DNA of 64,000 nt. Origin: a virus. The stretch is from positions 32,001 through 96,000 of the IMG/VR virus record IMGVR_UViG_3300017991_000003. The stretch is one strand, 5' to 3'. Positions 40,555 to 63,755 of the stretch are shown here, piece after piece. Numbering within the stretch: position 1 is the first letter of the stretch; every line of letters starts with the position of its first letter. The notes below the pieces were generated by a model. The model was not told where the DNA came from and ran no database searches. It worked only from the letters and a program-made list of their open reading frames with translations. The position numbers were made by a program, and so were the translations under genes.

Positions 40555-41574
40555 CTAGAGGAGGGAGGAGTATCGATCTGAGAGGTCTTGTTGCGTCAGG
40601 TACTTCGGGTCCTGATCGAGGTGGTACAGCATGCTAGGCACGCCGTGCTTCGTCAATACTTTGTTGACATTTTTGGCGGCATTCTGACCCTCGACATCGG
40701 GGTCCAGGAGGATGCCCACCAGGGACGGTTCGGAGGCTCGAATCAGCTTGGCCTTCTCCGCTGAGAAGGCGAGCCCGTTGATACCCGCGGCACGAGCCCC
40801 AAGCTGGACCAGGTGCATCGCATCAAAGGGGCCTTCAACCAAGGACAGGGGCTTACCGGCCCCATAGGGCAGTAGATGCTCGCCGAACAGGTGACGGCCG
40901 CTCACGAAAGGCCAGATCGTCCAGTACTTGAGGCCGTTTCCTGCTAGGGGCCGAACCTGTGCTCCGACGCAGCGAACGATGCCGACGTCTGGAGACACCA
41001 GGATGGGGAATACGAGGCAGGGCGCCTTGGTCGTTTTCGGGTTGTCGTATCGGTCGGTCCCCATGCCGTCGTCGGTGTAACCGGCGGGGACGGTGGTGCA
41101 GTAGAACTGCTCGATGGCAAAATCGGGATCGACCCCCTTAGCGGCCAGCACATCCCGTCCGAGGGGGAGCATCGGCACACGTAGCAGGTCAGCTAGGAAC
41201 ACGGTGTAGTCCGTGTCCGGGGTCGTACGGGTCTGTCGAGTGACGCCGGCAGCGGAGAAGTCCAGGCTTTCTAGCGCCAACTCCCGCTCTCGGGCCTTCA
41301 TCTGGAGGGCCAATCCCGCATACTGACCACCACTGAGGCGGTTCAGCTCGAGGAGCGTATCCCCCAGTGATGACAGGTGTTTACACGCGTGGCACTTCAG
41401 GAGGGTCACTCCAGGACCCACCGTCGCGGTCATCGACGGCCTTCGATCAGATCCTTTCCCATGAGTCCACGGAGCCAGCAGGCAGGAAAACTTCACATGG
41501 CGGTCCCCCGCGGGTCGAAGCTCCCCCGCTTGGGGCAGCTGGGCGAGGACGGTTCGGAGCTCTACCTCTTGCAT
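40555..41574 (-). CDS. DnaG-like DNA primase (zinc-binding plus TOPRIM-like)
   Basis: CHC2-like CLLAPWTH...CHACKH; LVEGPFDAMHL and LLDPDVEG TOPRIM-like acidic motifs; start set at internal Met to avoid overlapping the divergent fibre gene. Confidence 0.65.
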   Translation of the reverse strand: MQEVELRTVLAQLPQAGELRPAGDRHVKFSCLLAPWTHGKGSDRRPSMTATVGPGVTLLKCHACKHLSSLGDTLLELNRLSGGQYAGLALQMKARERELALESLDFSAAGVTRQTRTTPDTDYTVFLADLLRVPMLPLGRDVLAAKGVDPDFAIEQFYCTTVPAGYTDDGMGTDRYDNPKTTKAPCLVFPILVSPDVGIVRCVGAQVRPLAGNGLKYWTIWPFVSGRHLFGEHLLPYGAGKPLSLVEGPFDAMHLVQLGARAAGINGLAFSAEKAKLIRASEPSLVGILLDPDVEGQNAAKNVNKVLTKHGVPSMLYHLDQDPKYLTQQDLSDRYSSLL

Positions 41575-41632
41575 CTTTTCGGGTTCTCGGGGTTGGACTT
41601 CATAAGCTAAGACAGGGGAGGACCCCACACAC

Positions 41633-44600: not shown

Positions 44601-45409
44601 TTGGTGGGACCTACCCGGGCCCAGACGTGGTGGCTATCCAGGGGACCGCGGTCAACTCGGCGACGCCGACGACGGGTGAGGCCCTGCTCTACTCGGGAAC
44701 GCAGTGGAGCCCTGGGCCGATCAACTTCCTCGAGCTCAACGACGTCGATCCCACAGGCCTGACCAACCTCGACCTGTTCTACTACAGCTCGGCGTCGGGG
44801 ACTATCGTCCGGTCTAGCGGCCTCACGACCTACGCGTTCTACACGCACAGCGGATCGCACATCCACGGACAGTACGACGCAATCGACGGGGATCAGCTAT
44901 CGATCACCCAGCCGGGCGTCAACTACTCCCCGACGACCGACGCGACATACGGCACCAACACGGCGCACCTCGCTGCCCATCTGCGGGGTATCGGTCTGGT
45001 CCTGGAGGATGTCAGTCCCGCGGTCACCAAGCTCGCCGGGATCGAGGCGGGCGCTGAAGCCAACGACGTTCAGACCAAGAGCATCACGATCGAGGCGCCG
45101 ACCACGACGGAAGACATCTCGTTCTTCTACGCTCCGGTAGCGATGACGATCTCAGAGATGGTCACGGTCCTGGTGGGCTCTCCTACGCCGTCCCTAGCGT
45201 GGACGCTCCGGCACAGCACCGACAGGAGCGCTGTGGGCAACGAGGTCATCACCGGGGGATCCACGGCGAATAGTACGACGACCGGTAACGTGCTGACCTC
45301 CTTCAACGACGCAACGGTCCCAGCCAACTCCTTCCTGTGGGTTGAAACGGCGAGCCCCAGCACGAACGTGACGAGCTTCCAGCTCAGCGTTGAGTACACC
45401 GACGACTGA
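41633..45409 (+). CDS. Tail fibre / receptor-binding protein with internal repeats
   Basis: 1258 aa; seven copies of a unit containing TDHGxLxGLxDDDHTQY...GANKGYVD and five copies of a second unit DLxGTYPxPxVVAIQGT; AGGGGAGGA ribosome-binding site before ATG. Confidence 0.7.
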   Translation: MADNVQLYDAHLNLWTLRTSEDTEIHTPHHVSRLADGEGRFYRPGRPVPVSIYGTDGVEINIEAGSIAVSTDHNEDSVAVFGSSTPEGLENFRSLVVDPQGHLQTTVVSAPGVEPVGDSPDAGQLGTVILGVQVGATPASQVTGDGRTAPLIMDDRGRLFVSFGNSVAVLPFTQKGDLLTYDGSDEVVLGPTVDDALLTLDSSTSTGLRWVSPVTSSPSPVLFLREDLTWALPSAGAPGGAAGGDLGGTYPNPSVVAIQGISTSAAAPTPGQTWVYTGSAWSPGSPATGAATDHGTLTGLLDDDHTQYILADGSRDFSGSIGMGGNEITDVASPILVSWAANKGYVDDQITASVITDHGGLGGLGDDDHTQYVLVAGTRAFTGDQSLGGNKITSLGSPTTASDGANKGYVDANVVTDHGALIGLGDDDHTQYILTAGTRAFSGNQSLGGNLITSLGSPTTASGGANKGYVDAAITSAVITDHGGLGGLTDDDHTQYVLVAGTRAFTGSQSLGGNLITSLGSPTVVSDAANKGYVDAQIPTSLPPSGAASGDLGGTYPGPTVVAIQGTGVSANAPSTGDGLVYTGAAWSPTAVYRPGGTDVAVADGGTGASDASTARSNLGLTIGLDVQAHSAVLDATTASYTTAAEGKLSGIETNADVTDTANVTAAGAVMIGTTAAAGDLSGTYPSPTVVAIQGTGVSSTAPSSGQALIYSGTVWSPSTLPSGVTDHGALTGLGDDDHTQYILVGGTRAFTGNQSMGGNLLTSLGSPVAVTDAANKGYVNASITAAVVTDHGALDGLADDDHTQYHNDARALTWLGTRDTDDLDPSATRLYMSPGERTKLAGIEALADVTDAANVAAAGAVMVGDAAGGDLSGTYANPSVVAIQGTGCSSATPTAGQTWVYSGSQWSPGSPAVGGASDHGTLTGLGDDDHTQYILVDGTRAFTGAVSLGGSQINSLASPTLPADAANKGYVDDQIPTSLPPSGAASGDLGGTYPGPDVVAIQGTAVNSATPTTGEALLYSGTQWSPGPINFLELNDVDPTGLTNLDLFYYSSASGTIVRSSGLTTYAFYTHSGSHIHGQYDAIDGDQLSITQPGVNYSPTTDATYGTNTAHLAAHLRGIGLVLEDVSPAVTKLAGIEAGAEANDVQTKSITIEAPTTTEDISFFYAPVAMTISEMVTVLVGSPTPSLAWTLRHSTDRSAVGNEVITGGSTANSTTTGNVLTSFNDATVPANSFLWVETASPSTNVTSFQLSVEYTDD
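42507..43250 (+). repeat. Four tandem in-frame copies of a ~186-bp (62-aa) repeat in the fibre gene
   Basis: DDDHTQY codon strings recur at about 42537, 42731, 42911 and 43101. Confidence 0.85.
43801..44560 (+). repeat. Three further copies of the same 62-aa repeat interleaved with AIQGT-motif units
   Basis: DDDHTQY codon strings at about 43845, 44033 and 44413. Confidence 0.8.
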
Positions 45410-50198: not shown

Positions 50199-51593
50199 CT
50201 AGTAGGCAGCCTGACCACCGCTGCTCGCCATGTCCTGGACAGGGCCGAGCTGCGCGAACCGCATGTCGTAGAGATCCCATTGAACACGATAGGGTTGGTC
50301 GACCGCACCGTCTCGGACCTTGCCGAGCTTCATGTCGATGACGCGGGCGTTGTTACCGGCATCCTTCGGCGGTACCAGGAAGACGAGGTTGTTGGAGTCG
50401 TGCGAGATGCTCTGGCTGAAAGCCACAGCATCAGCGTTCGACCGGGCCAGCGTGCCTTCATTTCGGCGCAGCTGCGTGGCCAGCATGTAGTGACGGTTGG
50501 ACATCAGCGTATGCAGACGCATCTGCCGCATGTTGCCCTCCACCTTCTGCCAGCGCTCCTTACCAGGGCCCTCCATGTAGTAGAAGCCGTCGATCAAGAC
50601 CAGGTCCGCGCCAAACTCCTCAGCCTGTGCGGCAACCTGATCAGGAGTCGTAGCCTGGTTAGGGCCCACGATGCGCAGGTTCTCACCAACGCGAGCGTGC
50701 GGCCCGTCTGCTTTCAGGCTACGCAATGCCTCGAAGTAGGCCGCCTTCTCCACGTCACTTAGCTTCTGCTTCATGAGGCGGTTGAAGCTAGTGCTCGAGA
50801 GCACCGCGGCTTGGCGTCGAGCCACATCGATGGGTGCCATCTCCAGACTGACGATCAAGACCCGAGCGCGGGCGGCGTCCTTCTGCTCCTGCGTCCACGC
50901 CGGGATGTCGGGTGGGCGGTGGAAGATGTAGGGATCTCCCAGGAGGCCGGCGGCACTGTTGAGCACGATGAACCAAGTCTTGCCGAGGCCGGTAGGAGCC
51001 ACACAGCTGGTGATCTGCGCAGGGTGCCAGCCCCCAAGCTGTTCCTGAATGAACAGGAACGGACAAGGGATGCCGAGCTTCACGCCGGCCAGCCGATCGT
51101 TGTAGTCCTGCTCGAGATCCTCAGCGTACTCTCGGAAGTCCTTGATCTCCGTCTTGTGTGCCGAGTACCTAGCTTGCAACGTATGAGCGTACAAGGACAT
51201 CGCGTCCTTGATGTCGAACGGGTCGGTGCGCTCGGTCAGCTGCTTGTGAAGATCCTGAAGGCTCTCTAGCACATCTACACGCACCGCCTCCTTAGCGACT
51301 TCGTCGTAGAGAACCGAGATGCTCGCTTCCGGGATCTCAGTACCAGCCAAGATCGTGGGAAGCTCAGGCCAGGCGCGCTGCGCCGTGTCAGGCGTAGGAA
51401 GCTCGTTGTACTGTGCTCGGTACCCGACGACCCACTCGATGATCTCCGTCATCGGCTCTTGAAAGAACCCGGGGTTGAGTCCGTTCTTGGCGACGTGGTG
51501 GTCGAAGGCGGCTAGGTTCCGGTCACTCAGGATCTTGGTCAGGAAGAGAGCCTCGACCCTGTCTCGAGAGTTGACGTTGGTGAACCCGGTCAC
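50199..51593 (-). CDS. DnaB-like replicative DNA helicase
   Basis: Walker A APTGLGKT, SLEM motif VLIVSLEM, LVLIDGFYYM and LATQLRRNEG segments. Confidence 0.75.
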   Translation of the reverse strand: MTGFTNVNSRDRVEALFLTKILSDRNLAAFDHHVAKNGLNPGFFQEPMTEIIEWVVGYRAQYNELPTPDTAQRAWPELPTILAGTEIPEASISVLYDEVAKEAVRVDVLESLQDLHKQLTERTDPFDIKDAMSLYAHTLQARYSAHKTEIKDFREYAEDLEQDYNDRLAGVKLGIPCPFLFIQEQLGGWHPAQITSCVAPTGLGKTWFIVLNSAAGLLGDPYIFHRPPDIPAWTQEQKDAARARVLIVSLEMAPIDVARRQAAVLSSTSFNRLMKQKLSDVEKAAYFEALRSLKADGPHARVGENLRIVGPNQATTPDQVAAQAEEFGADLVLIDGFYYMEGPGKERWQKVEGNMRQMRLHTLMSNRHYMLATQLRRNEGTLARSNADAVAFSQSISHDSNNLVFLVPPKDAGNNARVIDMKLGKVRDGAVDQPYRVQWDLYDMRFAQLGPVQDMASSGGQAAY

Positions 51594-53980: not shown

Positions 53981-55402
53981 TCAAGGGTTGGGGATGCCTC
54001 GGCGAGCGGCTGTGTACAGCGTGTCGAAGGCCTCGCCCCGGAGCTTGTAGGACGCCATGATGACGTCGCCTTTCCCGGTCGGAGGTGTCTTGTAGGACCT
54101 GAGAGCCTTGACGGCCAGCTCGAGGACCTCGGGCTCGTCGACCCACTCAGGGTAGATGTCCAGGACGCCGTTACGGATCATCGCGTCATGATCCTCGGTC
54201 GAGACAGGAGCGGCGTTGATGTACTCCATGTCGGACATCACGTGGTTGCGCAGCCAGGGGAAGATGTTGTTCCAGGCGGCGGTCCAGTAGGCAGGGATGA
54301 AACCGACGTCTTGGCACCTCTGAGGGCGCATGAAGTCCTTCCAGTCCCGGATCCAGACCTTCAGGAAGACGGCCTGCTGCTGGTTGGTCCTGATCCCCGA
54401 GCTGGCTAGGAGCTCGCGGAACTGGTTCATGATCTGGGTCGTACGGGCGATGGAGTGGGCTAGGCGACCGTTGGGGAGGGTCTCGTTGAACAGGCACTTG
54501 ATCCCTGAGGCCTTACAGGCTGCTCGGATCATGCGGACGAAGTCCATGGACTTCCAGCGATCGACGTGGGAGAGGTCGAGGGGATCGACTCGCTCAGCCG
54601 GCTTGGGGTGGGCTGGGTCCTCCTGAGGGGCCCTGTACTTGGACAGGGTCTGCTTGGACTTCTTCTTGACCCGGTCATCCTGACGGGCCTTCTCCTCGCT
54701 GTAGGCGGACCCACTGGTCACGTCTTGGATGCGCTTCTTCGGGGCCCTATCCCTTCGGGTCATATCCCCCTCCTGAGGGCTTGGCGGGTCCTCCCGCCTC
54801 GACGAGGAATGCGAAGCATTCCGAGGAGAGTCAGAGTCCTTGTAGGACTCTTCCTCGTAAGGGCGGAAGCCGGCTTCACCCTGCTGGCGGCCCCTAGAAG
54901 CGGGGTCACCCCCCGCCGCGGCCACGGTACCGGCCTTGGCCGCCTCCGGGCAGTGCTCCTGTACCCAGGGGTCGTCTCGGTACCTGGCCCACAGTGCTCG
55001 CCAGCACCTGTGGGTGATCGTTCGGGGCCGGAGCTTGACCACTAGGTCCAGCGTGATCGGGACCGGCACGAGCAGGCTCGAGGCCCGGACGCGGTGGGTC
55101 CGATGAAGCAGGCCCACCTCCACAAGCCGGTTCAGGATCGTACGGATCTGCCGGCTCGACAGGTCGCAGACGTCTCCGAGCACACGCGCGGACGCCGAGC
55201 AGATCCCGTTACTGGACGCCTCCGCGAAGGAGACCACCTCCTGATAGACAAAAACCTCGGTCTTGGTGAGGACCGAGGAGCGTCTGACAGCCTTGGACAT
55301 CCGGTCGTAGCCGGAGACCTCCGGGGAGGGGGGCAAAATAATCGCATTTCCCTTAGCAGAAGGGACTTGCGTTCTACCAGTCTCGTGTCCTAGACTACTC
55401 AT
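53981..55402 (-). CDS. Helix-turn-helix domain protein (candidate replication initiator or regulator)
   Basis: N-terminal winged-helix-like segment (SSRQIRTILNRLVEVGLLHR); 473 aa. Confidence 0.55.
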   Translation of the reverse strand: MSSLGHETGRTQVPSAKGNAIILPPSPEVSGYDRMSKAVRRSSVLTKTEVFVYQEVVSFAEASSNGICSASARVLGDVCDLSSRQIRTILNRLVEVGLLHRTHRVRASSLLVPVPITLDLVVKLRPRTITHRCWRALWARYRDDPWVQEHCPEAAKAGTVAAAGGDPASRGRQQGEAGFRPYEEESYKDSDSPRNASHSSSRREDPPSPQEGDMTRRDRAPKKRIQDVTSGSAYSEEKARQDDRVKKKSKQTLSKYRAPQEDPAHPKPAERVDPLDLSHVDRWKSMDFVRMIRAACKASGIKCLFNETLPNGRLAHSIARTTQIMNQFRELLASSGIRTNQQQAVFLKVWIRDWKDFMRPQRCQDVGFIPAYWTAAWNNIFPWLRNHVMSDMEYINAAPVSTEDHDAMIRNGVLDIYPEWVDEPEVLELAVKALRSYKTPPTGKGDVIMASYKLRGEAFDTLYTAARRGIPNP

Positions 55403-55499: not shown

Positions 55500-55563
55500 G
55501 GGTACCCCGCACCCTACGCGGTCCTGGGGACCGTTTCAAGGTGCGGGGCTCCACAAATCGCAT

Positions 55564-56193
55564 CTAGCCGTCCGTCGTTACCCAGGTGGTCGTCCAGTTA
55601 CCAGCTCCGGCGTCCGGCCCTGTGTAGGTCACCTGCATCACCTGGTCCGTCGTGAGGTCGACCCTCTGCACGTTTGGTTGCGGCTGGGGCCGGGGCTCCT
55701 CGTAGGTGAAGCGGCTCCAGAACTGATCCTCGTCGATAGCCTTCAGCTCGTTTGAGCGCCGGCGGATATCGACCGTACCTGGAGCTAGCTTGAATAGTGA
55801 GACGTGGAAAGTGCCTAGGAGCTCTGTCGCATTGGCCTCTTGGAGTTGCTCGTGACCGTCCAGGTGCCGGAACGGGTACCACCTGTCCGTGACGCCCTGC
55901 ATCCTGCCTCCGATGTCCGAGAAGTGCGGGTAGTCTCGCATGCACGCATTGAAGATACGCTTCCACCATCGGGAGGAGTAGAGCGGATTGGTGCGAGCTC
56001 CGATATCTCGGCCCCTGAGGTGCTCTTCAATGTGTTGGAGGACCCTGAAGACGACAGCGCGGTGATCGCGATCCGTCGGGCCTCGAGAGCGCAGGGTGCG
56101 GAGCGGGAACGTGGCTACGTGAATGCTCTGCTCCTGGAGGTGGCGGGTGTTCGTGATGTGGAGGACCTGGATAGGGCGGGGCCGGCGACTCAT
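55564..56193 (-). CDS. Hypothetical protein
   Basis: Start at internal Met giving ATGA overlap (56190-56193) with upstream gene. Confidence 0.5.
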   Translation of the reverse strand: MSRRPRPIQVLHITNTRHLQEQSIHVATFPLRTLRSRGPTDRDHRAVVFRVLQHIEEHLRGRDIGARTNPLYSSRWWKRIFNACMRDYPHFSDIGGRMQGVTDRWYPFRHLDGHEQLQEANATELLGTFHVSLFKLAPGTVDIRRRSNELKAIDEDQFWSRFTYEEPRPQPQPNVQRVDLTTDQVMQVTYTGPDAGAGNWTTTWVTTDG

Positions 56194-56900
56194 GGCTTGG
56201 TCAGGGTCAGGATGGTGATCATGTAAGGCGTGCGCAGGAGTAGGTACTTGTCCTGGACTGCCCATAGCACGGGGCTCTTGCCTAGGAGGATCAGGCACTG
56301 GCGGAGCTTGGTGACGTTGACGGCCGGGTAACGGCGCTCACCCGAGATGGGGTACTCAGTCGGCTCGGCTCGAAGACCCTGCTGTGGGCAGATCTCCATG
56401 AACTGGTAGTTCAGGGCTGACTGATGTGCTCGCGATTGCGGGATGACACCCAGCGGGTCTCCGGTCACGCGCTTGAAGGCTGCGGAACGAGCAGCCAGTT
56501 GCTGCATCAGATCTGCGTGCGGGTAGTCAGGGCCGGCCTTCACTGGCGCAGCCCTCGGGGTGTCGAGCTGCGTGCTGCTGTAGATCGTGGTGACGGTCAT
56601 GTTGCAGACCATTCGATCTAGCGGCCAGTCCTCGACCCAGGTCAGCTCTTTGGTGATCGAGGGGTGCAGTTGGTAGAGCAGGCGGCCTCGACCGCGTGCT
56701 AGGTAAGGGCGCTTCCACGCAGCCAACCGGTGCGAGCCTTCGACCCGTTGAGGTGTTTGGTACTCCGCAAAGGGGCCGGCCGGTTCTGTCGGTTCTGCGG
56801 CTTTTCGAGGCTGCTCCAGGTGGGTCAGCAGGGTAAGGACTCGCGCCTGATCACCCGCGCTCAGGGCCTCGATACGCTCAGCGATGGTCTTGTCGGTCAC
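56190..56900 (-). CDS. Hypothetical protein
   Basis: GTG start at 56898-56900 preceded by AAGGAG 7 nt upstream; track ORF extends further into non-coding sequence. Confidence 0.5.
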   Translation of the reverse strand: MTDKTIAERIEALSAGDQARVLTLLTHLEQPRKAAEPTEPAGPFAEYQTPQRVEGSHRLAAWKRPYLARGRGRLLYQLHPSITKELTWVEDWPLDRMVCNMTVTTIYSSTQLDTPRAAPVKAGPDYPHADLMQQLAARSAAFKRVTGDPLGVIPQSRAHQSALNYQFMEICPQQGLRAEPTEYPISGERRYPAVNVTKLRQCLILLGKSPVLWAVQDKYLLLRTPYMITILTLTKP

Positions 56901-57127
56901 TAAAAAGCTCCTTGGTGAATCAACCGGAGCAGAGCTCCGGAGGTGAAAGGTGCCCCACCCGCCGAGAGGCGAGTGGGGCGGTTGCCAGGATGCACACGAA
57001 CTACTGGAGTGGTGGACCTGAGCTGAGCCGGAGTATGGCACCGGATCGAGCCGGATTCAGTGACTGCGTATAGCTCGTTGGGTTTGTCTACCTCGTGGAT
57101 GAGCTCGGAGTCACGACTCGAGCGGAG

Positions 57128-57289
57128 TCGCCTGCCTCGAGCTCATTGTTGCCATCATCTCGTCTGGTTGATGAGATGGCGGCGGCTCCTCCTCTCCTGT
57201 TATCCTGCGCTTACAGTATTCTCGGTGCCCGAGCTCGACCCATCTCGTCAACCTGACGCGATGATGGCAACAATGAGCTCGAGGCAGGC
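57128..57289. repeat. 31-bp perfect inverted repeat pair separated by 100 nt
   Basis: 57128-57158 is the exact reverse complement of 57259-57289, verified base by base. Confidence 0.9.
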
Positions 57290-57438
57290 GCCGCAGCGAG
57301 AGGCGCCGTGGCTCAGCCTCGTGGTGGGCAAACCCACGAGTTATTCGCAGACACTGAAGCCGGCCCGGTTGACATGCTCTGGCTCAGCTCAGGGTCTACC
57401 CGTAGGTGCAAGTGTGGCCGAGGTTGCTGTTGCGCTAT

Positions 57439-57457
57439 CTGCGGCGATGCGCCGCAG
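57439..57457 (+). repeat. Hairpin motif copy 1 (CTGCGGCG-ATG-CGCCGCAG)
   Basis: 8-bp stem, 3-nt loop; shares core GGCGATGCGCCGC with two other copies. Confidence 0.8.
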
Positions 57458-57785
57458 GACCCTCAAGTCAAGAGGGAATAGCTCTTCGTGTGCGGGGATT
57501 CCAAGGCAAGAGCCTGGATGGGCGCGCAGAGCATGATCCCGGTCGTGGAGGCGTGCCCGAGCTTTGTACGCGACCCGGTTCGGGTCGAGGATAAAGCGAA
57601 GGACCAGCACGCTGTAACGATCCGTGGATTATGCTCCGCGCTGTCCCAGCCAGCGCTTCGTTGGTAGTGGGAGGCGCCTCCGCTAGGAGGCGACGTCCTC
57701 GAGTTGCGCTACTGAAGCGACCACACATGCTGGCATGTGTAGCTTCAGGTGCGCAGTGCTCGAGGCCCACGACCAGTCGTACAGT

Positions 57786-57802
57786 GGCGGCGATGCGCCG
57801 CC
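57786..57802 (+). repeat. Hairpin motif copy 2 (GGCGGCG-ATG-CGCCGCC)
   Basis: 7-bp stem, 3-nt loop; same core. Confidence 0.8.
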
Positions 57803-58040
57803 TGAAGACGTTGTGGATTAGGCCTCCGGTAGGCCCGTTCCAGTCTTTCTACTCCCTTGGAAAGGTAGTCACCTCTTGCGAGGCTGGCTGGCTACCTTGG
57901 TATCGGCGCTCGTAGAGACTACCCGGTCACACGCCCGCCGGAGGCGGGCTTGTGGACGCGTGGTCTCAACGTAATGTGTCACAGGAGACAGCTCGAGGCG
58001 CAGCTCGAGCGGGCCTCCGGCCACAGTTTCTATCACTTGA

Positions 58041-58053
58041 CGGCGATGCGCCG
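58041..58053 (+). repeat. Hairpin motif copy 3 (CGGCG-ATG-CGCCG)
   Basis: 5-bp stem, 3-nt loop; same core. Confidence 0.75.
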
Positions 58054-58265
58054 CCGCGGAAGTCAGATGGGCTAGCTAGACCACTTCTTTCCTTGCTCCG
58101 CCGAAGATGTACCTGTTGGCAGCCCTGGTACTGGGCTTTTGGCTATGAAGAACGGATCATCGGGGCCAACTACCCTCCTGCTCTTCGTGCCTGTTGGTAC
58201 CGGCCTTTGGCCGGCAGCCGAGCCTGCTCCGGATTATGTGGAGCAGACTCGGTTCACTTGGTGCG

Positions 58266-58733
58266 CTAGCCGCGCTCCTTGACGGGGACCTTCATGATGA
58301 GGACGTCGCCCTCCTTGAGGGTCATCCCGTCGGTCACCTCCTGGCCGCCGATGTGCGGCTTCGACCCCTCGGGGGTGCCGAAGCGGCGAGCGTACTCGGT
58401 CCGCGCGTCGGCGACCGAGGTGCCGGCGGCGACGTTGAGGCGGCCGGGCTCGCCCAGACCGTCGGTGGCCGCGGCGGTGACCGTGGCGACCGGACCCGCC
58501 TGCGGGGTCTCCTGGGTCGTCGGCGCCGTCGTGGCGGTGGGAGCGGTGCGCGTCACGGCGACGGCCACCTCGGTGTCCGTGGGCAGACCCGTGGTCTGGT
58601 CCCACTTGGTCGGATCCGAGTGGTCGACCTCGTAGAGCACGGGGTTGCCGGCCGCGTCGTTCGCGGGGGAGTCGGCGTAGCGGATGCGACGGTTGAGGGT
58701 GTCGAACGCGGGGCGCTTGATGTTTCCGGTCAT
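58266..58733 (-). CDS. Beta-grasp (ThiS/MoaD/ubiquitin-like) domain protein with N-terminal extension
   Basis: C-terminal ~60 aa (GRLNVAAGTSVADARTEYARRFG...TLKEGDVLIMKVPVKERG) matches the ThiS/MoaD pattern by eye; ends in a single Gly; no clear ribosome-binding site. Confidence 0.5.
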   Translation of the reverse strand: MTGNIKRPAFDTLNRRIRYADSPANDAAGNPVLYEVDHSDPTKWDQTTGLPTDTEVAVAVTRTAPTATTAPTTQETPQAGPVATVTAAATDGLGEPGRLNVAAGTSVADARTEYARRFGTPEGSKPHIGGQEVTDGMTLKEGDVLIMKVPVKERG

Positions 58734-58756
58734 GGTGCAGAGGGTGTGTAGAGGGT

Positions 58757-59491
58757 TCAGGTGAGTTGGAGGGAGTGCTGCGTCTGCGGCGCGGCTTTCC
58801 CACCGAGCACGTCGACCACGATGGTGTTGAAGCTGGGCTTCATCGGGTCGTCGATCGTCAGGACCTGGGCGAACCAGGTCTGCAACATGGCCTGGGCGAC
58901 CGCTTGGTTCGCCAGAGCCAGTTGCGGCTGCGTCTCGTACTCCTGGGTGCAGTCCAGCTGATCGGGAAACTCGTTCCCAGGAGTCTCATGACGCATCTCG
59001 GGGTTCCGTTCGGTGAGCGACGCGCAGACGTCCTCGCTGTTGATGCGGCGCCAGAGCATGGCCTGGCCGCTGTCGAGGTCGTTGCCGCCGTCCACCCACG
59101 TGAACTCGTCGAGCTTGTCGAGCTGCTCCTCGAGGAAGCAGCGGGTCTTGTTGTTGTCCACGCAGCCGAACAGCGTGACGCCCTCGACCAACCACTCACG
59201 GTGGTGGTTCAGGAGCCGATCGCTCAGGTACATGGAGATCACCCGGACGTCCAGGCCCGGGAAGGTGTCTCGCAGGGTTCGGGCCATGATCTCGGCTTTG
59301 TTCTGGCCGATGGCCGCGGCGCCGTGCTGGCGCGCGAGGTTGTGGTCCTCGACCTCGTCGCCGTCGATGATGAAGAGGGTCGGATTCTGGATCCGATCCC
59401 CCACCATCTCAGGCGGGTGGGCGAGAAGACGAGCGAGCGGCTCGGCTAGGTGGTAGCCGATGCCGCCCGCTCCGAGGATGGCGTAGATCAT
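58757..59491 (-). CDS. E1-like adenylyltransferase (ThiF/MoeB family)
   Basis: Start at MIYAILGAGGIG (Rossmann GxGxxG); IIDGDEVEDHNLARQ matches the E1 Arg-finger; GCVDNNKTR matches the conserved DN..R segment. Confidence 0.7.
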   Translation of the reverse strand: MIYAILGAGGIGYHLAEPLARLLAHPPEMVGDRIQNPTLFIIDGDEVEDHNLARQHGAAAIGQNKAEIMARTLRDTFPGLDVRVISMYLSDRLLNHHREWLVEGVTLFGCVDNNKTRCFLEEQLDKLDEFTWVDGGNDLDSGQAMLWRRINSEDVCASLTERNPEMRHETPGNEFPDQLDCTQEYETQPQLALANQAVAQAMLQTWFAQVLTIDDPMKPSFNTIVVDVLGGKAAPQTQHSLQLT

Positions 59492-59495
59492 GAGG

Positions 59496-61394
59496 TCAGG
59501 GGTAGATGGGGAGGGTGGCTTCTGTTTCGGACTTGTTGCAGAAGGCGATCTCCTCGAGGAGGACATCGTCTTCCATGTCGTCGGGGTCCTCGAGGACTCC
59601 GTCCATCTCGAGCACCAGTCGATCCATCTGATCGAGGATCTCTTGGTAGTCCTTGCGGTAGGGAATGCCGGCGTTCTGGGCCGCCTTGCGGACGACAAAG
59701 TAGGTCAGCCGGAACCACTCGAGCAGGACGCCGTCGGAGTCCTCTCGCGAGAATGCCTCGACGTAGCTCAGGTTGGTCTCGATCACGGTCTCGATCACGG
59801 TGTCGATCGACGTCTCGGGGAACACAGTTTTCACCGTCGGGTCGGCGTAGACGTATTTCGAGAGCTTGTCGATCCGGGCATCCAGTGCGATCGACTTGAA
59901 TAGCCGGTCGAGAAGGTCGTCGATGCGATTCATCACCTCGTCGATGACGTCTCGAACCAGCATGCTGTAGAGGGTCTGACGACTCTCGGATGCGCTGTTC
60001 TGCGCTTCTTCGACGATCTCTTCGATCGTGGGGGCGTTATCGAACCACTCACTGGTCGAGGCGTGGTTCATGAGCAGATGCAGGGCTAGGGCCGTAGCGT
60101 TGCTCGACGTCAGACTGTCCTTGAACGAGGTGCAGTACGCCCACACGGCTCGTGGGAAGGTCGTTTGCTGACCCTCCGCCTTCTTGATCAGCTGAAGGGG
60201 GTAGTGCGCTTGCGGTGAGATCACCATGCCGTAGAAGCCGGTGTGCATCCGCTGGATGCGGAACTTCTTATCAGCGACCAGCGAAGGGCCAGAGGCTGTC
60301 TTGCTGACAGGTACCAGTGAGGTAGTCGTCTTCTTCGTCGTCTGGCCAAGGCCACCCTGCGCCCCCGTACCCCCAGTCTTGCCGCCAGGAGTCGAAGGCG
60401 TACCCGCTTTGCCGCCGGTCCACTTTTTCGAGCCATAGCCGCCATACCTGCTGGTCTTGGCTTTCTTCTCCGCCTCCTTGATGGCCTCGCTGGCCAACTT
60501 GAACGTGGTAAGACAACGGGCGGCCTCGCCCATCCTGTCCTTCCAACGCCCCAGGCTTTCCATCGACCCACAGAAGGTCATCACAGTGCTCGTGTCGACG
60601 TCCTCGAGCTTGTCGACGCTGAGACCGACGGCGAGCTCGTCGGGATCGACCCCGGCCTTCAGCATGGCTTCGCACAGTCCGGGGTGGGCGACCCGGTTCA
60701 GCCACAGCTGAATCAGATCCAGGCCGCCCTCCACGAAAGGGATGTCGAACAACTCCTCGAGACCGGTCGCGTGGCGGATGCCCTGCGCCTTCTCGTTGCG
60801 GTAGCCGGGGAGGGCGGTGACGAACGACGGGCACACCGAGAAGGGCGGCTTGTCCACGTTCCCGAAGGTGATGTGGAAGCCCGTCTGGTTGAGCTCGTTG
60901 GCGTCGTCGGTCGAGCTGTGGTAGGCTCCACCAGCGCCGTGACTGTGCGCGGTGCCGACGCAGATGAACTCGACAAGCTCTCCATCCTCGCAGATGGGGC
61001 AAGCGTTGCCGGCTTCGAGCTCGATCGAGCCGATGCGACAGGTCGTGCAGAAGCTCTTGACGTTGGGATCGTACTTCACGTGCCCCGCGGAGGCGGTGTA
61101 CCACGGCGGACTGACGAGGGTGTAGGCGTCGTCGACCGGCCCTCGGTGGAAGAGCACGAAGGCCTCGGTCTTCCACAGGCGGTAGACCTCGGCGAAGTAG
61201 CGGTAGACGAACATCGTCTCCGCCATGGAGATCTTGGGCCAGTTGGTGAGGTCCAGGTCACGCTGGATCTGGTCGGTTTCACCGAGGTCCTCGGCCCGGG
61301 CGGGAACGAAGGCCTGAGCCCAGGCGGCCCCGCCTGGGCCGATGGTCTTCAGCACGTGGGCTTGGTTGCCCTTGTAGTAGATGTCGGTGGTCAT
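59496..61394 (-). CDS. JAB/JAMM metallopeptidase-domain protein with zinc ribbon and large C-terminal domain
   Basis: Exact JAMM signature HSHGAGGAYHSSTDD preceded by CTTC...CPIC; GC3-rich codons checked across the gene; start at internal Met giving ATGA overlap with upstream gene. Confidence 0.7.
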   Translation of the reverse strand: MTTDIYYKGNQAHVLKTIGPGGAAWAQAFVPARAEDLGETDQIQRDLDLTNWPKISMAETMFVYRYFAEVYRLWKTEAFVLFHRGPVDDAYTLVSPPWYTASAGHVKYDPNVKSFCTTCRIGSIELEAGNACPICEDGELVEFICVGTAHSHGAGGAYHSSTDDANELNQTGFHITFGNVDKPPFSVCPSFVTALPGYRNEKAQGIRHATGLEELFDIPFVEGGLDLIQLWLNRVAHPGLCEAMLKAGVDPDELAVGLSVDKLEDVDTSTVMTFCGSMESLGRWKDRMGEAARCLTTFKLASEAIKEAEKKAKTSRYGGYGSKKWTGGKAGTPSTPGGKTGGTGAQGGLGQTTKKTTTSLVPVSKTASGPSLVADKKFRIQRMHTGFYGMVISPQAHYPLQLIKKAEGQQTTFPRAVWAYCTSFKDSLTSSNATALALHLLMNHASTSEWFDNAPTIEEIVEEAQNSASESRQTLYSMLVRDVIDEVMNRIDDLLDRLFKSIALDARIDKLSKYVYADPTVKTVFPETSIDTVIETVIETNLSYVEAFSREDSDGVLLEWFRLTYFVVRKAAQNAGIPYRKDYQEILDQMDRLVLEMDGVLEDPDDMEDDVLLEEIAFCNKSETEATLPIYP

Positions 61395-61816
61395 GTGGTG
61401 ATCAGGGGTGGGTGGAATCGACGTAGGACGGTCAAGACCGCCTGGGTGTCTTCGTTGATGTCTTGCTCGGCTAGTAGGTGATCGAGCCGGCGCATCCAAT
61501 CACGTAGGGTCGTGAGCTGCTCGGGGCCCATGCTCGCCGGAGGGTCGACGACAGGACGTCGGTCGCTCTCGTCTCGGATCAAGTTGAAGCGGATGTTGTT
61601 GATCCTTCCACCGTCTAGCGCAACTGGATAGGTGCGTTGGAAGATCTGACCAAGAGCCTCGATCATCTCTCGAGTAAGACCCGTCCCCTCAAGATCGAGA
61701 AGGTGCGGTCGGTTCTCGAGGATCCGAGATAGAAGCTCCTCGCGTCTCCGGATAATGGCCTGGTGATCATTGTGTCGATCACGCGCGCCTTGCACGGTGT
61801 CCAGAATGGTGGTCAT
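61391..61816 (-). CDS. Hypothetical protein (operon member)
   Basis: 141 aa; ATGA overlaps at both ends (61813-61816 and 61391-61394). Confidence 0.55.
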   Translation of the reverse strand: MTTILDTVQGARDRHNDHQAIIRRREELLSRILENRPHLLDLEGTGLTREMIEALGQIFQRTYPVALDGGRINNIRFNLIRDESDRRPVVDPPASMGPEQLTTLRDWMRRLDHLLAEQDINEDTQAVLTVLRRFHPPLITT

Positions 61817-62655
61817 CGGACCACCTCTCGCCACTTCTCGGCCGCCGTACCGAGCTCCCGGCCCAGTACGATCTCATCGACGTCCGTCTGCCAGGTCATG
61901 ATGCGATCCTCGGTCCAGCGCTGCCATCGACAGAACTGCCAGAGCATGACAGTGTTCATGTTCAGGCCCAGATCACGCCGCCTGTCGTAGTCGGTGTAGT
62001 CACCTTCGGGGAGTTGCTCGAAGTACGGGACCTCTCGAAGCGCTTCGGGAACCTCAAACCCCTCAGGGAGCGGCCCGCTGAAAGGTGGCATGGTCAGGGA
62101 GTGCTCGTAGTGCGCGTTGTAGCCGGACTCGTTGATGAGCTTGAGGACCATCTCCGGGATCGACTGGAGCCCGTTGTACCGGTACTGGCGGAACACAGCA
62201 CCCGTGCACATGCCTCCCGTATCTTGCTGGTTCGGTAGGAATGATTTGTACAGAACCGGGGTGTACCCCGCCTCCAGATGCGGCTGCTGCTTGGTGAAGA
62301 AGCAGCGGGCATCGGAGAGGCGCCCGTCGTAGATCGAGATGATGAAGACGCGCGCAGGCATGGCGACCAGGAATCGAAGACCCTCCGGCCAGCCGCGGTT
62401 CTCGCGGACGTCGATGGAGATCCTCTCAGCCCGCGGAGGCACGACTGCCATGAAGTGCTCGTTGTGGGCATCCTTGGTGTGTGCCAGGATGTTTACGTAG
62501 GGGTGGTACGGAAAGAGGGCGCCAGCGCGCCGGCCTCGTTCCTCGAGGGCGGTCACGACGTCTTCTTCCCGCGTGATGCGGTTGACGTGAACCGTTTGAT
62601 GGATCACGTGACCATCGACGATGACGAGTCGATCGTGGGTTTCGAAGTTGGTCAT
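61813..62655 (-). CDS. Hypothetical protein (operon member, candidate effector)
   Basis: 280 aa; ATGA overlap with the RT stop at 62652-62655. Confidence 0.6.
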   Translation of the reverse strand: MTNFETHDRLVIVDGHVIHQTVHVNRITREEDVVTALEERGRRAGALFPYHPYVNILAHTKDAHNEHFMAVVPPRAERISIDVRENRGWPEGLRFLVAMPARVFIISIYDGRLSDARCFFTKQQPHLEAGYTPVLYKSFLPNQQDTGGMCTGAVFRQYRYNGLQSIPEMVLKLINESGYNAHYEHSLTMPPFSGPLPEGFEVPEALREVPYFEQLPEGDYTDYDRRRDLGLNMNTVMLWQFCRWQRWTEDRIMTWQTDVDEIVLGRELGTAAEKWREVVR

Positions 62656-63755
62656 GGGAGGTACGCGCGTGTCTCGGCGCTGTAGTTGGTGGGGGTGTTG
62701 TGGTGCACGTCTTGCGCGACACGCAGTTGTAGTTGGAGCGAGGCTCCTTGATCAGGGTTGATGAAGTTGACGTGGTTGACGAGGCCGGCGAGGTGGTCAA
62801 AGTTCACCGGCACAGGGCCTCGGTGCGTCAGCTCTCCCCCACGGGGACAGCGGCCGAAGTGCGCGTCGCAGATGATCTTGTGCAGCCGGGCGCGAAGCGC
62901 GCGCCGTCGAGGCCTGGGAGCGCTTAGCTTCTCGTTGACGACGACGCCGCAGACCGTCATGCGACTGCCGATGGAGCGGAATCGGATCTTTTCGGGGGCG
63001 ACCTTGTAGCCCAGCTTTTTCAGGAACCCGATGACGGGGTACTGGAACTGGTACAGCTTTCTGTAATCCGCCGTGAAGGTCATGTCGTCGCTATAGCGGG
63101 TGTACGCGATCGGCAGGAGTCTGATCTGAGTCTGCGTCTTTCGCCGGCGCTCTCCGTGGTTGTCGACCCACCGCATCGTGGGGTTGGTCCGCCAGGACTC
63201 GATCAGCTTCAGGATGCCGAAGTCCACCTGAGCCCCTGCCAGGTTGGAGAGGAAGGGGGACGTGGGGGCTCCTTGTGGTAGGCCACCATCCAAGAAGCAG
63301 GCGCGTTTGACTCTGTCAAGGAAGAGCCTGTCGGCACGTGACATCGGTTGCATGTACCCCCTGGTCAGGAAGTACTCCAGCTGCTCGAGGACGACGTGGG
63401 GAGACACGGACGGGAAGAAGTCCCGCAGATCGATGTCCAGCTTGTACCGGTGACCTACATGCGGGGCGGCGTTGGTGTGGATACCACGCTTGCGGACGTA
63501 GGCATGAGCTGCTGGGGAGGCCCCGATCCCGAGCGCTTTGAGCTCGCTGAGGATGAGCTTTTGAGCAGCCATTAGCTCCGGGCAAGGGATCTGGAGCTTT
63601 CGCATCTTCTGACGTGTCCGACCGTTCGAAAGCGTCTCGAGTACCGGGACTTCTCGACCATCCCGGGTACGCCTGGTCTTGGGGATTCGTGCGAATCGGT
63701 AGTGCTCAGCTTGAGCGGTGTCCGTCAGGACATTGAATGATGGGTAGCCAGCCAT
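62652..63755 (-). CDS. Reverse transcriptase, retron-type
   Basis: TNAAPH (NAxxH), YKLDIDLRDFFPSV, GLPQGAPTSPFLSNL (QGxxxSP), YTRYSDDMTF (YxDD), RMTVCGVVVN (VTG-like); GAGGG ribosome-binding site 6 nt before ATG. Confidence 0.8.
   Translation of the reverse strand: MAGYPSFNVLTDTAQAEHYRFARIPKTRRTRDGREVPVLETLSNGRTRQKMRKLQIPCPELMAAQKLILSELKALGIGASPAAHAYVRKRGIHTNAAPHVGHRYKLDIDLRDFFPSVSPHVVLEQLEYFLTRGYMQPMSRADRLFLDRVKRACFLDGGLPQGAPTSPFLSNLAGAQVDFGILKLIESWRTNPTMRWVDNHGERRRKTQTQIRLLPIAYTRYSDDMTFTADYRKLYQFQYPVIGFLKKLGYKVAPEKIRFRSIGSRMTVCGVVVNEKLSAPRPRRRALRARLHKIICDAHFGRCPRGGELTHRGPVPVNFDHLAGLVNHVNFINPDQGASLQLQLRVAQDVHHNTPTNYSAETRAYLP

Follow-up and report, generated by a model that had tools for sequence, protein, structure and literature searches.

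A recurrent stem-loop in a phage intergenic region marks tandem helix-closed folding units, candidate template RNAs of a retron-type reverse transcriptase

Three copies of a small GC-rich hairpin lie within 615 nt of each other in a gene-free stretch of an uncultured phage genome, and the question is what they are for. The original prediction, made on a 64-kb window (64 of the 91.6 kb of the contig), held that their pattern suits repeated protein-binding sites or modular RNA elements. The sequence GGCGATGCGCCGC was found exactly at positions 57443-57455, 57789-57801 and 58042-58054, every time on the + strand and with 0 mismatches. No fourth exact copy exists in the 64-kb window, where the remaining matches need 2 mismatches and are as numerous as in shuffled sequences; the looser core GGCGNNNCGCC occurs at the same three places only. 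The predicted number, common orientation and confinement of the copies thus stand, as do the spacings of 347 and 255 nt. Stems were found where they had been placed: 8 bp in copy 1 (57439-57457), 7 bp in copy 2 (57786-57802) and 5 bp in copy 3 (58041-58053), which a G.U pair, in the minus-strand sense, lengthens to 7 bp (58039-58055). Three identical 13-mers inside 615 nt are far above chance, the estimated expectation being <0.01 exact copies per window. The spacing was rightly judged too wide for CRISPR; a CRISPR array and the template/variable repeats of a diversity-generating retroelement (DGR) were both rejected, since neither regularly spaced direct repeats nor a repeat pair of about 100 nt near the RT turned up in the gap or the window.

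An AAGTCA- or AAGACG-like element had been described after each copy. Such elements are present, but they do not form a single shared element. The AAGTCAA that follows copy 1 forms the loop of a neighbouring stem-loop (CCCTC-AAGTCAA-GAGGG), the GAAGAC that follows copy 2 pairs with GTCTT(T)C as the 5' arm of that helix, and GGAAGTCAG, which follows copy 3, belongs to a neighbouring stem-loop. Coordinates of these and all other features are collected in the table.

Features of the intergenic region and the adjoining operon (positions in the 64-kb window; all on the minus, operon-sense strand)
Feature	Position	Strand	Remarks
Gene-free, highly structured gap between 155-aa ORF and 237-aa ORF	56904-58265	-	1.36 kb; 3' end of minus-strand phage operon
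Terminator-like GC hairpin (56952-56979), then CACCUUUCACC (56951-56941) in operon sense	56941-56979	-	ends array
Conserved box GGTTGCCAG	56980-56988	-	8/9 complementary to CTGGCTACC at 57888-57896; possible outer helix
Unit 1 a2 arm, GCACACGAA	56992-57000	-	pairs with 57485-57493; in MFE fold
Giant rod-like hairpin, ~390 nt	57007-57403	-	msd-like part of unit 1; wobbles fit + strand sequence
Unit 1 motif stem-loop	57439-57457	-	+ strand CTGCGGCG-ATG-CGCCGCAG; operon-sense loop CAU; formed in unconstrained unit 1 fold
Small stem-loop beside motif 1	57460-57476	-	CCCTC-AAGTCAA-GAGGG
Unit 1 a1 arm, TTCGTGTGC	57485-57493	-	GAGC directly after, operon sense
Unit 2 a2 arm, TTCCAAGG + GCAAGAG	57499-57515	-	pairs with 57855-57862 and 57873-57879; covaries in orthologues
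Imperfect hairpin, ~130 nt, adjoining unit 2 a2	57515-57648	-	
Branched domain of unit 2	57658-57773	-	with 55-nt hairpin 57703-57757
Unit 2 motif stem-loop	57786-57802	-	GGCGGCG-ATG-CGCCGCC; orthologues in L003, L007, L008
Helix GAAGAC/GTCTT(T)C around variable stem-loop	57804-57851	-	between motif 2 and conserved block; compensatory changes in four lineages
Conserved block ACTCCCTTGG..AGGTAG..GGCTGGCTACCTTGG	57851-57898	-	unit 2 a1 arm (57855-57862); invariant GGAGU directly 3', operon sense
Unit 3 a2 arm, TCGGCG	57903-57908	-	pairs with 58099-58104
Hairpin, ~60 nt, adjoining unit 3 a2	57911-57973	-	tip GCCCGCC-GGA-GGCGGGC, identical in L008
Unit 3 motif stem-loop	58039-58055	-	+ strand GACGGCG-ATG-CGCCGCC; one G.U completes the 7 bp, in minus-strand sense only
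Stem-loop beside motif 3	58059-58093	-	
Unit 3 a1 arm, CGCCGA	58099-58104	-	GAGC directly after, operon sense
Leader, 155-aa ORF stop to unit 3	58108-58265	-	three hairpins; relatives carry tRNA genes here
155-aa ORF ending KERG	58266-58733	-	within cassette span 58266-61499
ThiF/E1 gene (core)	58757-59500	-	within cassette span 58266-61499
JAB-motif protein gene	59496-61499	-	within cassette span 58266-61499
Retron-type RT gene	62652-63755	-	same operon; NAAPH, RYSDD and VCG motifs

The gap that holds the copies shows no codon-position GC periodicity and hence no coding signal. It follows an operon whose genes are, in order along the minus strand, a retron-type reverse transcriptase (RT), a 280-aa ORF, a JAB protein, a ThiF/E1 protein and a candidate ubiquitin-like protein (Ubl). 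The same cassette, followed by a gap of 0.6-2.3 kb, is kept in 9 further distinct phage lineages with RT identities of 34-51%; no phage relative retrieved in that identity range lacks it, and wherever the cassette was complete a gap stood at the matching position. In relatives the corresponding gap contains tRNA genes on the operon strand; the 64-kb window contains no tRNA or tmRNA gene. Orthologues of the terminator-like hairpin in lineages L097 and L098 are followed by clear operon-sense U tracts. A scan of the window's gap for sigma-70-like promoters and intrinsic terminators returned nothing on either strand, the hairpin at 56952-56979 included. In the more distant RT relative L237 the E1 and Ubl genes are present and such a gap and the motif are absent, which counts against reading the units as retron-type templates. 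What gap L237 has resembles a broken reverse-strand gene and is uninformative; so is a motif-like hairpin of L021, which falls within RT coding sequence. Gut-metagenome relatives of the E1 that have no RT also lack a comparable gap, but at their distance linkage and phylogeny cannot be told apart.

DNA similarity searches against 50,697 phage records, in near and distant modes, found no match, and tblastn with the RT against the same records gave remote matches only. When IMG/VR was scanned with the flanking proteins and with an alignment of E1, nothing was recovered beyond the contig of the window itself and two remote loci. A conserved-block pattern (ACTCC..TGR..GGCTGGCTACC) had the hairpin nearby only in the source contig when run on IMG/VR; on GTDB genomes it was too loose and gave chance matches. 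None of the Rfam 15 models, among them GOLLD, ROOL, group II introns and whatever retron msr models the collection may contain, matched the window at gathering score, and at E values up to 1 the interval 55500-59500 yielded only a chance mir-2070 match on the 55-nt hairpin. The literature searched contained nothing on a phage RT + Ubl/E1/JAB cassette or its RNA.

The core GGCG-N3-CGCC occurs 13 times in 12.0 kb of orthologous gaps and 4 times in 205 kb outside them, a ~57-fold enrichment (p=8e-14); complementary outer triplets flank the copies in the gaps and none of the others. A generic palindrome, frequent throughout the genome, had been named as the alternative outcome; the motif is instead absent from the rest of the window and concentrated in the orthologous gaps. 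In the gaps it is always a 7-bp stem with a 3-nt loop, in which the inner GGCG/CGCC is invariant, the loop sequence varies across lineages and the three outer pairs covary (covariation score 0.484 vs 0.135 in shuffles, 0/500, 14 copies). The second-outermost pair, for example, is AU, GU or GC in different lineages. The strict core is absent from the gaps of L098 and L100. The number of independent covariation events is small, since only four lineages are close enough for alignment and copies of the same genome may share history. Pairing is complete in the operon sense, with 98/98 cells paired vs 92/98 on the other strand in the 14 copies; the + sense has 6 A.C mismatches and the operon sense none. 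Of the two functions originally proposed, protein binding is plausible only at the level of an RNA hairpin; an HTH or sigma protein that binds the motif as duplex DNA is disfavoured because the outer three pairs differ between copies of one genome yet remain complementary, and wobbles fall on one strand only.

Each copy turned out to belong to a larger structure. The window contains three tandem units, each closed by a long-range helix (arms a1 and a2) and each with one motif copy; the proposal of modular RNA elements was in this respect well founded, the copies being the hallmark stem-loops of conserved, covarying units. Read in the operon sense, a unit consists of a1, a G, a small stem-loop, the motif stem-loop, one or more long hairpins and a2, and the hairpin that adjoins a2 measures ~60, ~130 and ~390 nt in the three window units. 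The arms were finally defined as per-unit closing helices, taken as the longest inverted repeats; those of unit 1 form the longest perfect inverted repeat between the left flank and everything right of the giant hairpin. An earlier a1/a2 candidate, the box at 56980-56988 with the GGCTGGCTACC block, was significant in L007 only and was rejected; the outer helix involving this box is a perfect 8+8 bp in L007 (p=0.003) and weaker in the others.

Closing helices occupy homologous positions and have unrelated sequences in the window, L003, L008, L007 and L097, the kind of a1/a2 closure expected of a retron. For unit 1 the arms are GCACACGAA/TTCGTGTGC in the window, GCAGCAGTTGA/TCAACTGCTGC in L008 (11 bp) and ACTTCTAA/TTAGAAGT in L003 (8 bp). 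For unit 2 they are TTCCAAGG/CCTTGGAA in the window, CTCAGTG/CACTGAG in L008 and CTCAAGG/CCTTGAG in L003 and L007. The unit 3 helix of L008, ATCTAGCG/CGCTAGAT, was read from the sequence and forms in the fold of the unit. L007 and L097, with a single unit each, show the same kind of closure. Unconstrained folding of 10 units reproduced the topology (z = -3.6 and -8.9), with a long hairpin adjoining a2 in every unit folded. A G directly follows a1 in 8/10 units, and all three window units have GAG there; its absence from L003 unit 1 and the L097 unit counts against a retron. By analogy, the topology of the units is that of the retron msr-msd layout. We consider it very probable that the locus holds structured RNA modules of the operon sense.

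Wobble pairs of the long hairpins gave a different strand signal. In giant hairpins, G.T pairs in the + sense vs the opposite sense numbered 10:2, 17:1, 15:5 and 9:2. Over all a2-proximal hairpins the ratio was 54:14 (p=1e-6), different from that of the a1-proximal part (Fisher p=0.015). Outside the giant hairpins an automated census showed a weak bias, 21:10 in other long hairpins and 4:6 in a1-proximal parts. Beyond what composition accounts for, the + strand gains ~14 kcal/mol in stability, whether RNA or DNA parameters are used; about half of the + strand energy advantage is due to base composition, judged from shuffle means. A mutational strand bias as the source of the G.T excess was considered and dropped, the skew at 4-fold sites lending it no support. 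The + sense bias of giant hairpins fits the cDNA of an operon-sense RNA, which has exactly the + strand sequence; their opposite-sense wobbles would suit a structure selected as reverse transcript.

The RT of the operon matched PADLOC retron RT models at 1e-41 to 1e-44 and the NCBIfam retron St85 family at 2e-38, the latter below the curated cut-off; its best PDB matches were all retron RTs. Retron RTs are defined by the NAXXH motif of region X and the VTG motif of region Y (PMC7736814). NAAPH and VCG stand at these sites here, with the conserved H and G kept, and by these matches and motifs the enzyme belongs to the retron clade. The interval between the RT gene and the ORF upstream, at 56 nt, is too short for a non-coding RNA. 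The structured region starts 4.4 kb downstream of the RT, after four genes, and so differs from retron ncRNAs, which have been described as contiguous with the RT (PMC7736814).

Our best explanation, to which we give about an even chance, is that the units are retron-type templates and the motif the stem-loop by which the RT recognizes them. The minus strand would be transcribed into three paralogous tandem RNA units as a 3' extension of the operon; the RT would bind the motif stem-loop of each unit, prime from the G that follows a1 and copy the a2-proximal long hairpin into single-stranded DNA. The resulting hairpin DNA, up to ~390 nt, may be the product sensed or used by the rest of the cassette, E1, JAB and Ubl among it.

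The same units could be large structured operon-sense non-coding RNAs unrelated to reverse transcription, with motifs that bind some other phage or host protein or serve architecture or processing, like other large phage RNAs found beside tRNA genes; we hold this to be a real if minority possibility. It accounts just as well for the hairpins, the closed units, the covariation and the operon-sense signals, and it is favoured by the tRNA genes in the relatives' gaps and by L237, which has an RT but no such gap. It leaves the opposite-sense selection of the giant hairpins unexplained and the retron-type RT without a template RNA in the locus, and it turns the order a1, G, stem-loops, long hairpin, a2 into coincidence. 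An RNA transcribed from the + strand, antisense to the operon, would account for the giant hairpins, which pair best in that sense and would form long double-stranded RNA, the motifs being hairpins of that transcript. The whole gap folds more stably in the + sense in most lineages, and L003 has a promoter-like TTGCCA-18-TAATTT left of the giant hairpin and a + sense hairpin followed by a U-rich run near the right end. This reading is nevertheless unlikely: the motif has its A.C mismatches in just this sense, about half of the energy advantage is base composition, terminators and tRNAs point to the operon sense, and the scan of both strands of the window's gap found no promoter-like site. A transcript from the L003 site would, moreover, miss the covarying closing helix, because the site overlaps the a2 arm.

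If the elements acted as DNA, they might be replication-origin or partition elements, that is iterons or operators for an O-like initiator or another dimeric protein, with the giant palindrome as a cruciform or single-strand initiation signal. The gene of an O-like replication initiator is only 1.5 kb distant (53981-55402), in relatives replication genes come next, dyad repeats in one orientation are typical of origins such as lambda ori, and a strand-specific giant hairpin would suit a single-strand origin. Lambda-type O-bound iterons are close-spaced and conserved in sequence, whereas the copies here stand 250-350 nt apart (347 and 255 nt, unlike iterons) and their outer three pairs vary between copies of one genome while staying complementary, which indicates selection on pairing and not on sequence. 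Wobbles are one-sided, the long-range closing helices require a single-stranded molecule, and neither an AT-rich stretch nor a skew inflection was seen here, so that an origin too is improbable. Phage N4 has three early promoters that are small GC hairpins with a stem of 5-7 bp and a 3-nt loop; they act as extruded DNA for a virion polymerase of 3500 aa and lie upstream of early genes. The three non-coding copies in one orientation resemble them, and a review describes hairpin promoters with a 7-bp stem (PMC4496689). The window, by contrast, has RNA-type wobbles and closed RNA units, no gene downstream of any copy and a loop sequence that is not conserved across lineages; a giant virion polymerase is absent from it, the largest ORFs having 1085 and 1258 aa (in 64 of the contig's 91.6 kb), the latter with fibre-like repeats. 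A role as terminators, or as sites of processing between RNA genes, fares no better, as the motif hairpins are not intrinsic terminators, no U tract following them; we regard this whole group as very improbable. That a generic GC-rich palindrome merely recurred by chance, the genome being GC-rich, could be argued from the count of GGCGNNNCGCC, 3 in the window and no higher than in shuffles (4.3). This reading is refuted by the identity of all three 13-mers within 615 nt, by the enrichment of the core in orthologous gaps with flanks always complementary there, and by covariation, and hardly merits credence.

Taking the units as retron-type templates, we propose, more tentatively and at somewhat less than even chance, a new kind of retron in large environmental phages: one RT serving one to three tandem units that close its operon, hairpin DNAs that reach ~400-480 nt and so exceed any known msDNA several times over, coupling to E1, JAB and ubiquitin-like proteins in place of the known retron effectors, and a GGCG-N3-CGCC triloop as RT recognition element once per unit. 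We know of no natural retron with several units or with a 390-nt msd. If the units do template the RT, no natural retron before this one would have had several units or a hairpin DNA of several hundred nucleotides, and it would be phage-borne and joined to ubiquitin-like conjugation genes. It would widen the range of templates of retron RTs and bear on retron-based genome editing, which is at present limited in template length and in multiplexing, and it would raise the question of how a phage uses such DNA: in counter-defence, in exclusion of other phages or in control of its own replication. Even without reverse transcription, the locus is a conserved kilobase-scale modular RNA structure of uncultured phages with no Rfam match.

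A closed-unit RNA array behind an RT operon, its motifs the putative recognition stem-loops of template RNAs, is an arrangement that we found described nowhere in the literature searched. Like GOLLD and ROOL, it is a kilobase-scale, highly structured phage non-coding region, and those RNAs, too, are frequently neighbours of tRNA genes; it differs from them in having no Rfam match, in its repeated closed units with long rod-like hairpins and in its synteny with the RT operon. The neighbouring genes recall PRTRC (ParB-related, ThiF-related cassette) gene sets: E1 is nearest the PRTRC ThiF model (5e-15) and JAB matches PRTRC protein A weakly, both below curated cut-offs. No ParB gene was seen here, however, and the set is joined in a phage to a retron-type RT and an RNA array. 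To our knowledge, the E1, JAB and candidate Ubl neighbours match no effector type of the Mestre et al. 2020 classification.

Known msDNAs are ~50-160 nt long, against up to ~390 nt for the long hairpin here. Retrons have one ncRNA, contiguous with the RT in a bacterial defence island; here three tandem units, with no Rfam match, form the 3' end of an operon of a large phage, and 4.4 kb separate them from the RT. With retron msr-msd RNAs (e.g. Ec86/Eco1; PMC7736814) the locus shares a retron-type RT with NAXXH- and VTG-like motifs, a1/a2 closure, small stem-loops first and the long hairpin next to a2; the G directly after a1 in 8/10 units and the wobble bias of the giant hairpins, which fits the cDNA sense, may be further likenesses.

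An exact-copy search of the 64-kb window located the 13-mer GGCGATGCGCCGC at 57443, 57789 and 58042, each time on the + strand with no mismatches, and no further exact copy. The triple same-orientation repeat of the original prediction is thus real, its coordinates and spacings were right, and its absence elsewhere in the window is upheld. Two-mismatch matches to GGCGATGCGCCGC in the window were as frequent as in shuffles, and the looser core GGCGNNNCGCC was likewise restricted to the three motif sites. With flanks included, the stems are 8, 7 and 5 bp long for copies 1, 2 and 3, each with an ATG loop; the stem of copy 3 grows to 7 bp when one G.U pair (minus-strand sense) is permitted. The letters of the AAGTCA and AAGACG elements predicted to follow each copy are present; they are not one shared element but parts of three distinct neighbouring helices or loops. 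All three copies lie in a gene-free gap of 1,362 nt, which is flanked on both sides by minus-strand genes and has no codon-position GC periodicity (Table).

Coordinates of features in the window and in fetched DNA of RT relatives (operon sense is the minus strand of the window)
Feature	Position	Strand	Remarks
Gene-free gap	56904-58265
Motif copies 1, 2, 3	57439-57457; 57786-57802; 58039-58055		in units 1, 2, 3
Giant hairpin	57007-57403		unit 1
Conserved box GGTTGCCAG	56980-56988		beside terminator
Complementary box CTGGCTACC	57888-57896		in conserved block
GCCCGCC-GGA-GGCGGGC	57933-57949		L008: P 1144-1160 of gap
Operon	58266-63755, on to L014:1087-1689	minus	200-aa ORF, retron-type RT, 280-aa ORF, JAB, ThiF/E1, 155-aa ORF
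Upstream genes, from gap outward		minus	155-aa ORF ending KERG; ThiF/E1; 667-aa ORF with JAB motif; 280-aa ORF; RT
Stretch of ~310 nt without ORF	61500-61812		between JAB gene and 280-aa ORF
Replication initiator O-like ORF, 473 aa	53981-55402	minus	weak matches (phrog_391, 9e-6); 1.5 kb past gap
DnaB-like helicase	50199-51593		further beyond O-like gene
Primase	40555-41634		further beyond O-like gene
Family A DNA polymerase	36487-39027		further beyond O-like gene
1258-aa ORF	41633-45409	+	several internal 180-192-nt repeats (families D2-D9), like tail fibre/adhesin proteins
CTC/GTC/TTC triplet run	15900-16200		long, low complexity; acidic in minus-strand ORF 15669-17435
GAG/GAA-rich stretch	1711-1793		mirrors 15900-16200 run
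tRNA genes (Ala, Gly, Ile, Leu) in post-Ubl gap	L011:15796-15949; L012:15087-15160; L098:8163-8324; L100:7618-7690	operon
GCAAGCACGCAGTGCGGC, five tandem copies	L100: ~6980-7060 (P 1545-1630)		hairpin tip, 2.3-kb gap
Stretch of 1.46 kb	L237:9770-11230		resembles broken reverse-strand gene

The closest model to the ThiF/E1 protein is PRTRC ThiF, and the 155-aa ORF encodes a candidate ubiquitin-like protein (Ubl) with no family match. The metagenomic contigs that carry RT relatives (34-51% identity) reach 193 kb in length. Ten or more phage lineages from metagenomes keep the operon; no likeness to the locus was detected among 50,697 phage records, and the operon is absent from cultured-phage records. 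Wherever a relative's DNA reads past the Ubl gene, the gene order is identical (RT, ~270 aa, ~140 aa, ~600 aa JAB, ThiF, ~150 aa), and the last gene is followed by 0.6-2.3 kb free of genes. The ~140-aa gene of the relatives occupies the place equivalent to the ORF-free stretch between the JAB gene and the 280-aa ORF, and in the window it may be lost or miscalled. In L237, whose RT is related more distantly, the cassette is reduced to RT, 246 aa, 174-aa JAB, ThiF and 114 aa, and no post-Ubl gap is present.

In ten lineages, 12.0 kb of gap sequence contain 13 copies of the motif core GGCG-N3-CGCC, versus 4 in the remaining 205 kb (binomial p = 8e-14), and three extra complementary pairs outside the core accompany gap copies only. 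The strict core is missing in two distant lineages, L098 and L100. In operon sense, 98 of 98 cells in 14 aligned copies are standard pairs; on the opposite strand six become A.C mismatches (92/98 paired). The outer three pairs of these copies covary, with both sides changed in 11 cells and a covariation score of 0.484 versus 0.135 for shuffled copies (reached by 0 of 500 shuffles); sequence-level alignment covered four lineages only, and copies within a genome may be homogenised. The second-outermost pair, for example, is AU in L003 and L007, GU in L008, L097 and window copy 3, and GC in L011 and window copies 1 and 2. Since outer pairs vary among copies of one genome and yet remain complementary, selection acts on pairing and not on duplex DNA sequence. 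The loop is constant inside a genome and varies between genomes (ATG three times in the window and in L008, CTG twice in L003).

Each copy belongs to one of three tandem folding units closed by a helix with arms a1 and a2. To locate closure, the sequence flanking the giant hairpin (a ~390-nt rod in unit 1) on its left was searched against all sequence on the right of the hairpin for the longest perfect inverted repeat. In every lineage searched the closing repeat lay 25-45 nt past the first motif copy. For unit 1 the arms are GCACACGAA/TTCGTGTGC in the window, GCAGCAGTTGA/TCAACTGCTGC in L008 and ACTTCTAA/TTAGAAGT in L003, with chance expectations of ~0.1, 0.01 and 0.5, respectively, by our own arithmetic, which ignores the shared position. 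The closing helix of unit 2 covaries (TTCCAAGG/CCTTGGAA in the window, CTCAGTG/CACTGAG in L008, CTCAAGG/CCTTGAG in L003 and L007), and that of unit 3 is TCGGCG/CGCCGA in the window and ATCTAGCG/CGCTAGAT in L008. The same closure is present in L007 and L097, which have one or two motif copies. Unconstrained folding of ten units recovered a common layout, in operon sense a1, small stem-loop, motif stem-loop, at least one long hairpin and a2. The long hairpin adjacent to a2 measures ~60, 130 and 390 nt in the window, and a G immediately follows a1 in eight of the ten units (GAG in all three window units). Past the last unit, the array ends in a GC hairpin followed by CACCUUUCACC; equivalent hairpins in L097 and L098 are followed by clear U tracts. 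The gap RNA has no Rfam match.

The GCCCGCC-GGA-GGCGGGC hairpin, the tip of the unit 3 long hairpin, is identical in L008 despite diverged surroundings. The box GGTTGCCAG is complementary to CTGGCTACC at 8 of 9 positions, and the equivalent boxes of L007 are perfectly paired (8+8 bp); the two boxes might form a helix enclosing units 1 and 2, or be binding sites for a common protein.

Several features point to RNA of operon sense. Full motif pairing occurs in this sense only, and the terminator-like hairpins have operon orientation, as do tRNA genes found inside the gap in five lineages (that of L236 read by eye; none in the window). No promoter-like site was found within the window gap, and a + strand transcript from the sole such site seen, in L003, would miss the covarying closing arm. 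The giant hairpins, however, point to the opposite (+) sense. Their wobbles read as G.T in + sense at ratios of 10:2, 17:1, 15:5 and 9:2 in four lineages, and the gap of L100 has two giant hairpins with a like one-sided bias. The + strand stability excess over composition is ~14 kcal/mol with both RNA and DNA parameters, and 4-fold-site composition shows no matching mutational bias. In an automated census, the hairpins lying between a2 and the motif together gave 54:14 and the a1-proximal parts 4:6 (Fisher p = 0.015); once the giant hairpins are set aside, the bias is weak, at 21:10.

The top-scoring models for the RT are retron RTs (PADLOC, 1e-41 to 1e-44; NCBIfam retron St85 family, 2e-38), as are, without exception among the best matches, the most related solved structures. 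The RT has NAAPH and VCG at the positions of the retron motifs NAXXH and VTG (PMC7736814). The spacer between the RT gene and the ORF upstream is just 56 nt, too short for a template RNA in the canonical place. The window belongs to a 91.6-kb IMG/VR viral contig that encodes a DNA polymerase, a primase and helicases of its own.

In retrons, the msr part acts as RNA, and the msd part is copied to DNA having the opposite-strand sequence. The locus fits this expectation, since its RNA part is selected in operon sense and its long hairpin in the complementary sense. From this dual-sense selection, the retron-type RT, which is encoded in this operon and lacks any other visible template, and the a1-G-stem-loops-long hairpin-a2 layout, we propose that the units may be retron-type templates for the operon's RT. 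The motif would be the stem-loop through which the RT recognises each unit, priming would occur at the G after a1, and cDNA would be made from the long hairpin; the E1, JAB and candidate Ubl proteins might have some role. Region Y of retron RTs steers the enzyme to its cognate msr (PMC7736814). Judged from sequence, the motif copies are very probably stem-loops of a structured RNA array in operon sense, and the chances that this array works by a retron mechanism seem about even.

Chance recurrence of the motif is excluded by the exact-copy search of the window and the gap enrichment across lineages. A large RNA with no role in reverse transcription is compatible with all data save the opposite-sense bias of the giant hairpins, which it leaves over, and the RT, which it leaves an orphan; we consider it unlikely, if still a serious candidate. 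Transcription of the + strand instead would account for the giant hairpin, but the motif, closures and terminators misfit, and such an RNA is improbable. Equally doubtful are origin iterons or operators near the O-like initiator: spacing, compensatory changes inside genomes, one-sided wobbles and long-range helices all argue against them. N4-type hairpin promoters have a geometry in common with the motif (PMC4496689), but the giant virion polymerase and a downstream gene are lacking, which makes them very improbable here.

The incomplete literature searched yielded no account of such a cassette or of its RNA, which is absence of evidence only. The retron is the closest known system, sharing with the locus the RT type, the a1/a2 arms and a long hairpin adjoining a2. 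Since the locus RNA lies away from the RT and is not contiguous with it, and the priming G and DNA product are at candidate level, we call the locus retron-like and do not file it as a retron. Unusually for a retron, it stands at the 3′ end of its operon, consists of tandem units with hairpins of up to 390-480 nt, has a phage as its host genome and neighbours E1, JAB and candidate Ubl genes, which show a weak affinity to PRTRC.
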